Positions 6,914-8,599 of a stretch of DNA of 32,000 nt are shown piece after piece. The position numbers were made by a program, and so were the translations under genes. How positions within the stretch are numbered: position 1 is the first letter of the stretch; every line of letters starts with the position of its first letter. The notes under the pieces were generated by a model. That model was not told the origin of the DNA and ran no database searches. It worked only from the letters and a program-made list of their open reading frames with translations. The DNA comes from Candidatus Jordarchaeales archaeon (lineage in GTDB: Archaea; Asgardarchaeota; Jordiarchaeia; Jordiarchaeales; Freyrarchaeaceae): contig JAWAHN010000002.1 in assembly GCA_038889235.1 (NCBI GenBank), positions 44,356 to 76,355 of the forward strand. Direction: 5' to 3'.

Positions 6914-7366
6914 CTAGGATTCAGAGGACGCCGACTTCCCTGTTTCCGCACTAAAGATATCCTTAGCACCCTTCTTAACAACTTTCATGTTTACCTGATA
7001 TATGTCGTACGAGATTGTATTCCCTCTAACTAGCTTCCTCCTGCGTTCCCCCTTCTTCTTAGGCCTAAATCCGGGACCCGAGCTAAGCAGCACCCTTTTC
7101 CGACCCGGTCCCTCTATGTCTGGCCTCATAGGAAAGCCGTCTTTATCCGAGCCGCCAGTAACTTGTAACTCGTAGCCTACTAGGCCTAAGGGGTCTCCCT
7201 TAACTATCTCGCCTATCTTTACGTCTATTAAGCTTCTGAACTTTACATCATCAACACTTATGGTGACGCTTCTACCCGTCTCAGGGTCGCTTACAACGAG
7301 CTTGCGTACATACTCTTCGCCTGCACGCTTCACTTCAACCACTCCTAGTAGCTTTGTAAGACTCAA
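6914..7366 (-). CDS. rps6e: 30S ribosomal protein S6e
   Basis: KLVVSDP, KIGE, ITGG-like VTGGSDKDGFPMRPD, GERRRKLVRG. True start may be GTG 7333 given the TATA position. Confidence 0.95.
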   Translation of the reverse strand: MSLTKLLGVVEVKRAGEEYVRKLVVSDPETGRSVTISVDDVKFRSLIDVKIGEIVKGDPLGLVGYELQVTGGSDKDGFPMRPDIEGPGRKRVLLSSGPGFRPKKKGERRRKLVRGNTISYDIYQVNMKVVKKGAKDIFSAETGKSASSES

Positions 7367-7380
7367 AACAAGATATCCTC

Positions 7381-7387
7381 TTATAAA
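7381..7387 (-). promoter_or_regulatory. TATA box of the rps6e operon
   Basis: TTTATAA on the minus strand just upstream of rps6e. Confidence 0.55.
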
Positions 7388-7417
7388 CTAAGCGCTCAAA
7401 TTCAGATTTGAAAGAGG

Positions 7418-7730
7418 GTTCTGAGTTAAGTAGGGATGTATAGTGGGTTGTTTTCGCTCCTACTTAACCCTTTCCCTCTCGATTAACCCATTGAGGGCCT
7501 GGGTGAAACCGCATCTGAAGGCTCAAAACAGCTACAACCCCCATCCAACATCAAACCGCATCTTTCACATTTAACGACCCTGCCCCGGATATGAAGCCGT
7601 GCTTCCAGAGCAAACTGGACAGGTTTTAGATGACCTAGCCAAGTTAACCTAAACGCCACTGAGAACAAAGCAGTCAACCCACATTTAAACCCATATGACC
7701 CGAAACCACTGACTACGGCGAGATTTCGGC
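7418..7730 (-). mobile_element. Non-autonomous IS200/IS605-family (IS1341-type tnpB) remnant
   Basis: Frameshifted TnpB C-terminus followed by a 10-bp inverted repeat (7425-7434/7459-7468) and a CAGAAC end. Left boundary is uncertain. Confidence 0.7.
7426..7648 (-). pseudogene. tnpB: tnpB C-terminal fragment
   Basis: Stitching frames gives VNLARSSKTCPVCSGSTASY/RGRVVKCERCGLMLD/VVAVLSLQMR/GFTQALNGLIERE/GLSRSENNPLYIPT*. This has the TnpB CxxC...CxxC Zn ribbon; the DRDxxA RuvC-III motif is degraded; about four frameshifts. Confidence 0.8.
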
Positions 7731-7783
7731 AAGCAAAACAATGCTCATAAATTTTAAAACATTAATGCCAACTTATCTTTTTC

Positions 7784-8599
7784 TCAAAAATTTTCCTTTT
7801 TTAATTTTTGGCAGACTTTCTCCCAGTCAACGAGCAATATTGCTGCAATAACTAGAATTATGAATGCTATACTTACCAACATCGCTAACAAACCGGTTTC
7901 ACCAGAATACCATTCAAGTATTGTTTTACCAAATATTTTAACTCTTGAAAACATTCGTGCGGCATATGTTATCAAAGTGCACATTATAATCTTCCCCGTG
8001 AAACATCCCAAGATTGTCTTTTTATAAGAGTACTTGATCATTCCCAAAGCCAGTAGCAATACGTCGTCAGGTAAGGGAGTTGCTGAAAAAAATATGATTA
8101 AAGGGATGGCCCAGCCCTGCTTTACGAGAGATTGGATGCGTTCAATTCGCTGATTGTAACGCGTGTTTTCAAGTGCTTCAGCTGCGCCTCGCCCAAGAAG
8201 CCAAGCAACGGTCTCTCCTATAGCGGCCCCTCCTCCAGCAGCGATTCCCATAAGCAGAGGGTTGATCCAGATATTAAAAATGACCAAAAACCATAGGAAG
8301 ACGACGTAGGGCACAGGGAAGATCACAGATAAGTTGCCAAAAATGCTGACGAGGAAAACTGCAAAATACTCCCCGAGGTCGCCGCCGGGAAAAAAATTTG
8401 CGAAACAAAACATCCACCAAGCTAAGGGATTCATCCACAGCATCAACAAGTCCCAGAGGAGGAAAGTAGGTTCAATAAAGTACGAGAGGTATGGATTGAT
8501 GAACGAGTAAACGTACCATGCTAAGAAGTGATCTGTCAGAAGAAATAGTGGAGTAGAAAAAATCCAATACTTGGTGATTGACTTTATCAGTTTAACCAC
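7784..8599 (-). CDS. DedA/VTT-family membrane protein
   Basis: Multiple hydrophobic helices; GAAIGETVAWLLG and FSATPLPDD motifs. Confidence 0.8.
   Translation of the reverse strand: MVKLIKSITKYWIFSTPLFLLTDHFLAWYVYSFINPYLSYFIEPTFLLWDLLMLWMNPLAWWMFCFANFFPGGDLGEYFAVFLVSIFGNLSVIFPVPYVVFLWFLVIFNIWINPLLMGIAAGGGAAIGETVAWLLGRGAAEALENTRYNQRIERIQSLVKQGWAIPLIIFFSATPLPDDVLLLALGMIKYSYKKTILGCFTGKIIMCTLITYAARMFSRVKIFGKTILEWYSGETGLLAMLVSIAFIILVIAAILLVDWEKVCQKLKKENF

Follow-up and report, generated by a model that had tools for sequence, protein, structure and literature searches.

A gene-less derivative of an archaeal IS607-type transposon upstream of rps6e that keeps most of a predicted TnpB guide-RNA fold

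Several described systems resemble the locus analyzed here. Stand-alone omegaRNAs that are mobilized without an effector gene and act in trans are described in PMC10691335 (citing Altae-Tran 2021), and PATE-like elements "often encode omegaRNAs" that require a trans-acting TnpB (Meers et al. 2023, 10.1101/2023.03.14.532601). An RNA that fuses the left end to the right end is expressed in Halobacterium (PMC4615843). The guides used by TnpB lie immediately outside the right end of the transposon, and HTH proteins are mentioned next to TnpBs of the serine-recombinase branch (PMC10691335). IS607 elements are reported to have no inverted repeats or duplications, to carry an identical core dinucleotide at both ends and to use a TAM that includes this core (10.1101/2023.11.20.567912).

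The locus described below is a short element without genes that lies upstream of rps6e in a Jordarchaeales genome. Since gene-less elements with omegaRNAs as well as stand-alone omegaRNAs have already been published, the element is not a new kind. Its own points are an IS607-like HTH-tnpB parent, an archaeal host, and the presence of stem-kept and stem-decayed copies in one genome.

The mini element, its copies and its parent family

The window, i.e. the 32,000-nt stretch of DNA that was analyzed, carries a 304-bp mini element at 7416-7719 on the minus strand, between rps6e (6914-7366, minus, Ribosomal_S6e) and a gene for a VTT-domain membrane protein (7784-8599, minus). The element begins with GCCGTAGTCAG and ends with CTCAGAACCC. 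These limits are the bases at which homology stops in comparisons with two miniature copies on contig C3 and with both ends of a full element on contig C1, and the boundary motifs were found again in more than 40 related copies. An earlier, sequence-only reading had proposed a miniature tnpB-derived unit without its nuclease at 7418-7730; a unit of ~300 nt is indeed present, and the proposed span came close to the actual one. The left-end segment of ~73 nt (7647-7719, minus) shares its end motif with an IS607-type element, includes the native promoter region, and was 76-78% identical by BLAST to positions 1-63 of the C1 element. The rest of the element (7416-7646, minus), delimited by frame translations and alignment, comprises the decayed last ~78 codons of tnpB and the right end, which together form the omegaRNA scaffold region. 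This part was 75-77% identical to the tnpB 3' ends of relatives.

No intact protein-coding gene is left in the element, as stops occur in every frame in addition to four frameshifting indels. Three-frame translation of 7380-7742 showed that the TnpB C-terminus is split across three minus-strand frames, which contain SSKTCPVCSGS, VVKCERCGLMLD, VVAVLSLQMR and ALNGLIERE. Both zinc-ribbon CxxC pairs as well as the LQMR and ALNxLIERE motifs are still visible in these fragments. Alignment to 18 full-length relatives identified indels of +1, -2, -8, -3, +1 and -3 nt in the window copy, four of which shift the frame. The catalytic MDRDVV now reads LDGG and is followed by a 2-nt deletion, such that the RuvC-III Asp (DRD motif) is lost. 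The earlier description of ~75 remaining 3' codons with about four frameshifts and a destroyed RuvC-III Asp motif therefore holds.

The host genome (2.14 Mb in 8 contigs, 95% complete) contains three relatives of this segment: two ~305-bp copies on C3 (77% identity) and one tnpB 3' end on C1. The C3 copies (G000:C3:418633-418938 and C3:261550-261852; loci L002 and L003) are 98.7% identical to each other across exactly 302 bp, which implies recent mobilization, and sequence identity between them ends at unrelated flanks. The flanks of all three minis in the genome are likewise unrelated. Pairwise BLAST matched each of the three short copies to the C1 element at both ends, over ~55-60 nt at the left and ~200 nt at the right. 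Because the window copy and the C3 copies have common sequence across the deletion junction, their descent from one miniature ancestor is indicated, and because the left and right ends are both kept in three copies, the element is a mobile deletion derivative and more than a 3' fossil. We conclude that 7416-7719 is a mini transposon, a statement that we consider nearly certain. It is a MITE-like, non-autonomous internal-deletion derivative of an archaeal IS607-type element, in which a left end of ~70 nt is joined to a right end of ~230 nt.

By eye, only the 3' codons of tnpB are recognizable at this locus, as would be expected if a full-length tnpB had decayed in place next to a chance TATA-like box. 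However, the ~60 nt that precede these codons are homologous to the full element's left end, and the deletion junction is common to the two other copies in the genome. These two observations refute an in situ stump, and similar minis that consist of a left end and a 3' end occur in other genomes as well. We consider decay in place to be exceedingly improbable.

The full element (G000:C1:432152-433557, locus L004, minus) is 1.4 kb long and consists of a left end with a TTTAAATA box, an HTH ORF, tnpB and the right end. Its ORF1 encodes 58 aa with an HTH_17/MerR-type helix-turn-helix and overlaps the start of tnpB by 14 nt. The tnpB gene matches Cas12f1-like_TNB and OrfB_IS605, codes for the three invariant RuvC residues (D, E and D), and has hundreds of ~382-aa homologues in MAGs labelled Bathyarchaeia, Brockarchaeota, Nitrososphaeria, Thermoprotei, Archaeoglobi and others. 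Of 80 related loci, most have a small HTH ORF ahead of tnpB, and the pair is conserved across several archaeal phyla.

The C1 gene is the only cognate tnpB in the genome, and its first ~15 codons are out of frame owing to one additional G in a G5 run near codon 15. A second assembly of the 1.4-kb element (L258) contains the same G5 and is distinguished only by three single-base homopolymer indels (two more, by another count); given such differences between assemblies, the tnpB frameshift is possibly an assembly error. The homopolymer indels also hint at assembly errors more generally, so single-base frameshifts in this genome need to be read with caution. The sequence-only reading had suggested that BLAST might uncover further copies together with tnpB and tnpA genes. 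This search did uncover two minis and a tnpB element; the tnpB is frameshifted and there is no Y1 tnpA.

Minis that consist of the left end and the last ~218 nt are present in at least four other MAGs. In the Brockarchaeota MAG DRTY-1.bins.18 (G061, 1.6 Mb), a 293-bp mini gave 27 matches, nine of which cover its full length at 84-100% identity. The 3' module of the minis in other genomes starts at the 5' edge of helix H2 of the predicted fold described below. Secondary deletions in minis removed either the stretch from H2 to the AACCUUCAGAUG conserved block or the loop of helix H5, and in two Bathyarchaeia copies (L126:1641-1688 and L133:1609-1657) the H5 loop is inverted with respect to every other copy while its 13-bp stem is unchanged. 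The edges of the module and the secondary deletions fit a minimal guide-RNA module, and common descent of some of these minis is possible. A 16-mer scan of metagenome contigs for copies of the window type returned chance matches only, none of which aligned to the element.

Termini and mobilization

The left-end motif CCGTTGTCAG also begins a second type of element in the same genome, at ~240 kb on C1 (G000:C1 240.1-243.3 kb; locus L135: 1190-3180), which encodes a serine recombinase and a 417-aa TnpB. This element ends with the tnpB stop codon followed by CTCAGAACCC, and its termini and their spacing are equal to those of the HTH-tnpB family and the minis. At 152 aa, the recombinase ORF is short and may be truncated. 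ORF1 of the HTH-tnpB element aligns to the N-terminal HTH of this recombinase with 33% identity (E=2e-9). The full form contains only the 58-aa HTH ORF and no serine recombinase TnpA; recombinases sit in other elements of the genome.

CC is present at the left and right junctions of the window copy and of all related copies examined. In every family copy examined, the base before this dinucleotide is G at the left junction and A at the right one, where the end reads ACCC. The two ends of the mini element are not inverted repeats, and its flanks show no duplication. From the shared termini, the likeness between ORF1 and the recombinase HTH, and the CC junctions, we infer that the HTH-tnpB family is an IS607 derivative that lacks the catalytic domain. 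Judging from these sequence features, the family is probably mobilized in trans. GCC is a candidate TAM for its TnpB, in which case ACCC at the right end would shield an occupied site.

A search of the genome for a Y1 transposase (PF01797) gave no match. Similarly, no inverted repeat was detected at the left end of the window copy (7-nt seed, at least 8 nt, arms at most 80 nt apart), the sole one in the copy being the right-end hairpin. Because the Y1 gene and a left-end hairpin are both missing, an IS200/IS605 mechanism is unlikely, and the peel-and-paste model was rejected for this element. The IS1341 framing of the sequence-only reading has to be abandoned accordingly: with its HTH ORF and tnpB, asymmetric ends and CC core, the parent is IS607-like and not an IS1341 or Y1-moved IS200/IS605 element.

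Conservation of the predicted guide-RNA fold

A consensus structure was calculated with RNAalifold from the 3'-terminal ~235 nt of the 18 full-length relatives, which yielded five robust helices comprising 37 pairs. All positions below refer to the minus strand of the window. Helix H2 (9 bp) pairs 7623-7615 with 7587-7579 and encloses hairpin H1 (6 bp), in which 7606-7601 pairs with 7597-7592; the window copy keeps 8 of the 9 pairs of the former and 5 of the 6 pairs of the latter. Helix H4 (5 bp, CCCTC with GAGGG) extends across 7474-7497 and is complete in the window copy (5/5 pairs). The terminal hairpin H5, with 11 consensus pairs, spans 7423-7470. Finally, a closing helix of the 3' domain is predicted between the last 6 nt of the element, GAACCC (7416-7421), and GGTTTC (7505-7510). 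In the family consensus this helix pairs GGGUUC with the final six bases GAACCC; the window copy keeps 5/6 pairs, and its terminal CC may be the recombination core. Three additional helices from the RNAalifold output (A, b and c) were set aside for lack of support, their single-sequence pair probabilities being near zero in most relatives; the substitution statistics described below were carried out both with and without them.

H5 includes a perfect 10-bp stem formed by GTTAAGTAGG and CCTACTTAAC (7425-7434 and 7459-7468) with a 24-nt loop, just as had been noticed from the sequence alone. By our own estimate, ~1 perfect stem of this kind is expected by chance per 32 kb. We take the terminal hairpin to be real because the same hairpin is found at the right end of ~20 related loci and compensatory changes occur in relatives, e.g. 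GCUAAG with CUUAGC in L040 and L045 and, in L119, a variant that is doubly compensated. Three relatives (L079, L040 and L090) show full compensation of H1, e.g. as GGCUAC with GUAGCC, and the inner pairs of H2 vary among relatives as CC/GG, AG/CU and UC/GA. The many G.U pairs assign the structure to the strand that is sense for tnpB. The 3' arm of H5 contains the stop codon of tnpB, at a distance of 10 nt from the boundary. Overall, the modelled family fold is what would be expected of a TnpB omegaRNA. The window copy likewise derives from the tnpB 3' end and the right end, and its scaffold stops at the transposon boundary.

The window copy keeps 34 of the 37 robust pairs, as compared with 18 of 37 in the C3 sister copies. 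Its identity to the family consensus is 91% in paired columns and 67% in unpaired columns (p=2e-5), while the corresponding values for a C3 copy are 70% and 74%. Derived changes were then counted using the family consensus as the outgroup, with the shared junction taken as evidence of common miniature ancestry. In the window lineage, 1 of 63 robust paired positions carried a derived substitution compared to 15 of 129 other positions (p=0.023, from only 16 events); the wider helix set gave 2/84 paired and 14/119 other positions (p=0.016). The C3 lineage exhibited no such bias (7/63 and 15/129). Both paired changes of the wider set in the window lineage are C-to-U changes that yield G.U pairs, a pattern more in keeping with RNA than with duplex DNA. 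In addition, the indels of the window copy are situated in loops or otherwise outside the robust helices, whereas deletions in the C3 copies strike H1, H2 and H5. With respect to pairs kept, substitutions and the placement of indels, the stems are thus better conserved than the reading frame, which had been proposed as a way to distinguish an RNA from a fossil.

Retention of the fold is incomplete. From a block that is almost invariant among relatives, 8 nt (GGGGAGAA) and another 3 nt are missing in the window copy; hence, the earlier claim of a kept omegaRNA scaffold applies to most of the structure, with these 8 nt and 3 nt gone. When the window copy was folded alone, the probabilities of the consensus pairs were 0.96 for H5, 0.50 for H1, 0.27 for H4 and 0.09 for H2. 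Most full elements gave values of ~1.0 for H1, H2 and H5, i.e. the fold of the window copy is less robust. Searches against Rfam, with the whole window at the gathering threshold and with 7300-7850 at E<=10, identified no meaningful family and one chance miRNA match, and a search for tRNA and tmRNA found none.

These results bear on the possibility that the locus is an inert, decaying mini transposon in which stems were preserved by selection on a master copy before insertion, or by chance. The losses in the most conserved block and the weak predicted fold are compatible with this explanation, as is the modest significance of the stem statistics (p ~0.02). The frameshift in the cognate tnpB points in the same direction. 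So do the C3 sister copies, which are degraded and yet mobile: they moved recently despite a broken scaffold, indicating that mobility does not need an intact guide-RNA fold. On the other hand, an inert element does not readily account for the retention of 34 robust pairs at ~25% overall divergence, or for a lineage in which the sole stem changes are C-to-U substitutions giving G.U and every indel misses the robust helices. We regard inertness as a possibility to be taken seriously, albeit one that falls short of probable.

Expression, the putative guide and rps6e

An archaeal TATA-like box, TTTAAATG, is located at 7682-7689 (minus), a position at which its counterpart in the parent would be the promoter of the ORF1/tnpB operon. 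The full and mini copies examined, including all minis from other genomes, have a GTTTAAATAG-like or GTTTAA(A/G)TAG-type box at the corresponding place in their left ends. Its presumed promoter role follows from this position, which in the full element precedes the ORF1 ATG by ~44 nt. The TTTAAA box of the sequence-only reading is present at 7684-7689, although it appears to be the native left-end promoter and not a chance promoter beside a tnpB fragment. Based on archaeal promoter geometry, transcription of the mini element would start near element position 60, ~245 nt before the boundary.

Sequence data from other sources were examined for this locus. A DNA contig from another study contains the same insertion with 3 mismatches and 1 indel. 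An empty allele was sought in DNA runs and none was seen; near-identical strains carry the same insertion. One metatranscriptome library yielded contigs over rps6e (7111-7316) and over the downstream gene. The same library contained a 235-nt contig whose alignment to 7416-7612 has two 1-nt indels and is free of mismatches; no contig covered 7317-7415 or 7613-8200. A raw-read metatranscriptome run (X7) contributed no reads. This contig continues for two non-matching bases past 7416 and diverges upstream of 7612, and such contigs give neither strand nor transcript ends. Its different flank indicates that it derives from a near-identical copy elsewhere or from another strain. The contig therefore weakly supports expression of this type of element and not of the 7416-7719 locus. 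With regard to an inert mini transposon, the result has two sides: the RNA did not come from this locus, but a near-identical copy is represented in an RNA library.

The right flank at 7396-7415 (minus), TCTTTCAAATCTGAATTTGA, is the would-be guide, an assignment made by position. This 20-mer is unique in the genome; as no other match was found at up to 2 mismatches, there is no second target at that level. Immediately beyond is the rps6e promoter (GCGCTTAGTTTATAAGAGG, 7375-7394, minus), which is not part of the element and is conserved in front of rps6e in three genomes of the same genus. The promoter is intact, starting ~22 nt downstream of the right end of the element with its TATA 27 nt downstream. 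In the three same-genus genomes it is present and the element is absent from the site. When the spacer upstream of rps6e was compared with these genomes, alignment was limited to the rps6e promoter and a TTTAAAATT motif further upstream; the spacer is too diverged for the insertion point to be fixed to the base.

A ATTTAAAATT-like motif, located at ~7740-7756 (minus) in the window, precedes the rps6e TATA by ~60-70 nt in this genome and in the three others of the genus (G001-G003). In the window genome, the mini element stands between this motif and rps6e.

The location raises the alternative that the element was taken over by the host, with its left-end promoter or structured RNA modulating rps6e, or with its transcript serving as a host small RNA without TnpB. 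The element has the same orientation as rps6e, its right end lies 27 nt upstream of the rps6e TATA, and the insertion is retained in near-identical strains from two studies. There is also a precedent in Halobacterium, where a PATE-derived RNA influenced growth (PMC4615843). Nonetheless, the rps6e promoter is intact and is conserved without the element in the three same-genus genomes, none of the relatives searched carries the element at the site, and no contig of the RNA library joins the element to rps6e across 7317-7415. No evidence of an effect of the element on rps6e was seen, and we consider host takeover improbable.

Proposed function and comparison with known systems

The explanation that we favor, by a little over even chances, is that the mini element still produces a guide RNA which is, or was until recently, functional with a TnpB acting in trans. 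In this model the left-end promoter would drive a transcript of ~250 nt, which would fold into the scaffold and read into the right flank (7415-7396), the latter serving as the guide. A full element would provide, in trans, the TnpB that binds the RNA of the mini. Excision would leave an empty site consisting of GCC and then the flank, and cleavage of this site by the complex would let recombination restore the insertion. Movement of the mini would depend on an IS607 serine recombinase that acts in trans through the shared end motifs and the CC core. A stronger form of the model is that the mini is a guide-only hyperparasite, in which the omegaRNA fold has remained under purifying selection after gene loss while TnpB is borrowed for retention and the serine recombinase for movement. 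We put this form forward tentatively, as a conjecture that may well be wrong. If it is true, the recurrent 3' module of ~218-230 nt in the minis of several archaeal phyla marks a minimal functional guide-RNA gene.

Whichever explanation applies, the mini element reveals no new mechanism. It is a natural archaeal (Jordarchaeales) example of a transposon cut down to its ends, promoter and putative guide RNA, and the preserved-stem and decayed-stem copies bear on selection for a guide RNA independent of the nuclease gene. It also extends the idea of gene-less omegaRNAs from Y1-type IS200/IS605 elements to an IS607-like HTH-tnpB family that is widespread in hot-spring archaea. In practical terms, the ~218-nt module of the minis could help to delimit the minimal scaffold for a compact (~382 aa) TnpB.

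The closest parallels are the stand-alone omegaRNAs and PATE-like elements. As in those systems, a gene-less mini keeps the ends and the scaffold, shares the genome with an effector element and would need TnpB in trans; the differences are the archaeal host and a parent that is IS607-like (HTH ORF and tnpB, CC core, no hairpin at the left end) and not a Y1-mobilized IS200/IS605 element. VNG_R0052 and the sotRNAs of IS1341-type tnpB in Halobacterium (PMC4615843) similarly involve fusion of the left and right ends after gene loss, and they include an RNA that overlaps the tnpB 3' end in sense, as the putative RNA of the mini would. Searches of the mini turned up neither a match to Rfam or HgcC nor a UUCA tetraloop motif. 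Classical MITEs are also short, non-coding, multi-copy and of internal-deletion origin, but the mini has neither terminal inverted repeats nor a target-site duplication. IS607 elements with TnpB (Zedaveinyte et al., 10.1101/2023.11.20.567912) have the same asymmetric ends, with the same dinucleotide at both junctions and no target duplication. As in the present family, tnpB ends within ~10 nt of the right end, and the ends found here match those of a serine-recombinase element. In contrast to IS607, the full form here has only the 58-aa HTH homologue without a catalytic domain, and the window copy has no gene at all. The core is CC in the tnpB sense, compared to GG in the clostridial IS607 element.
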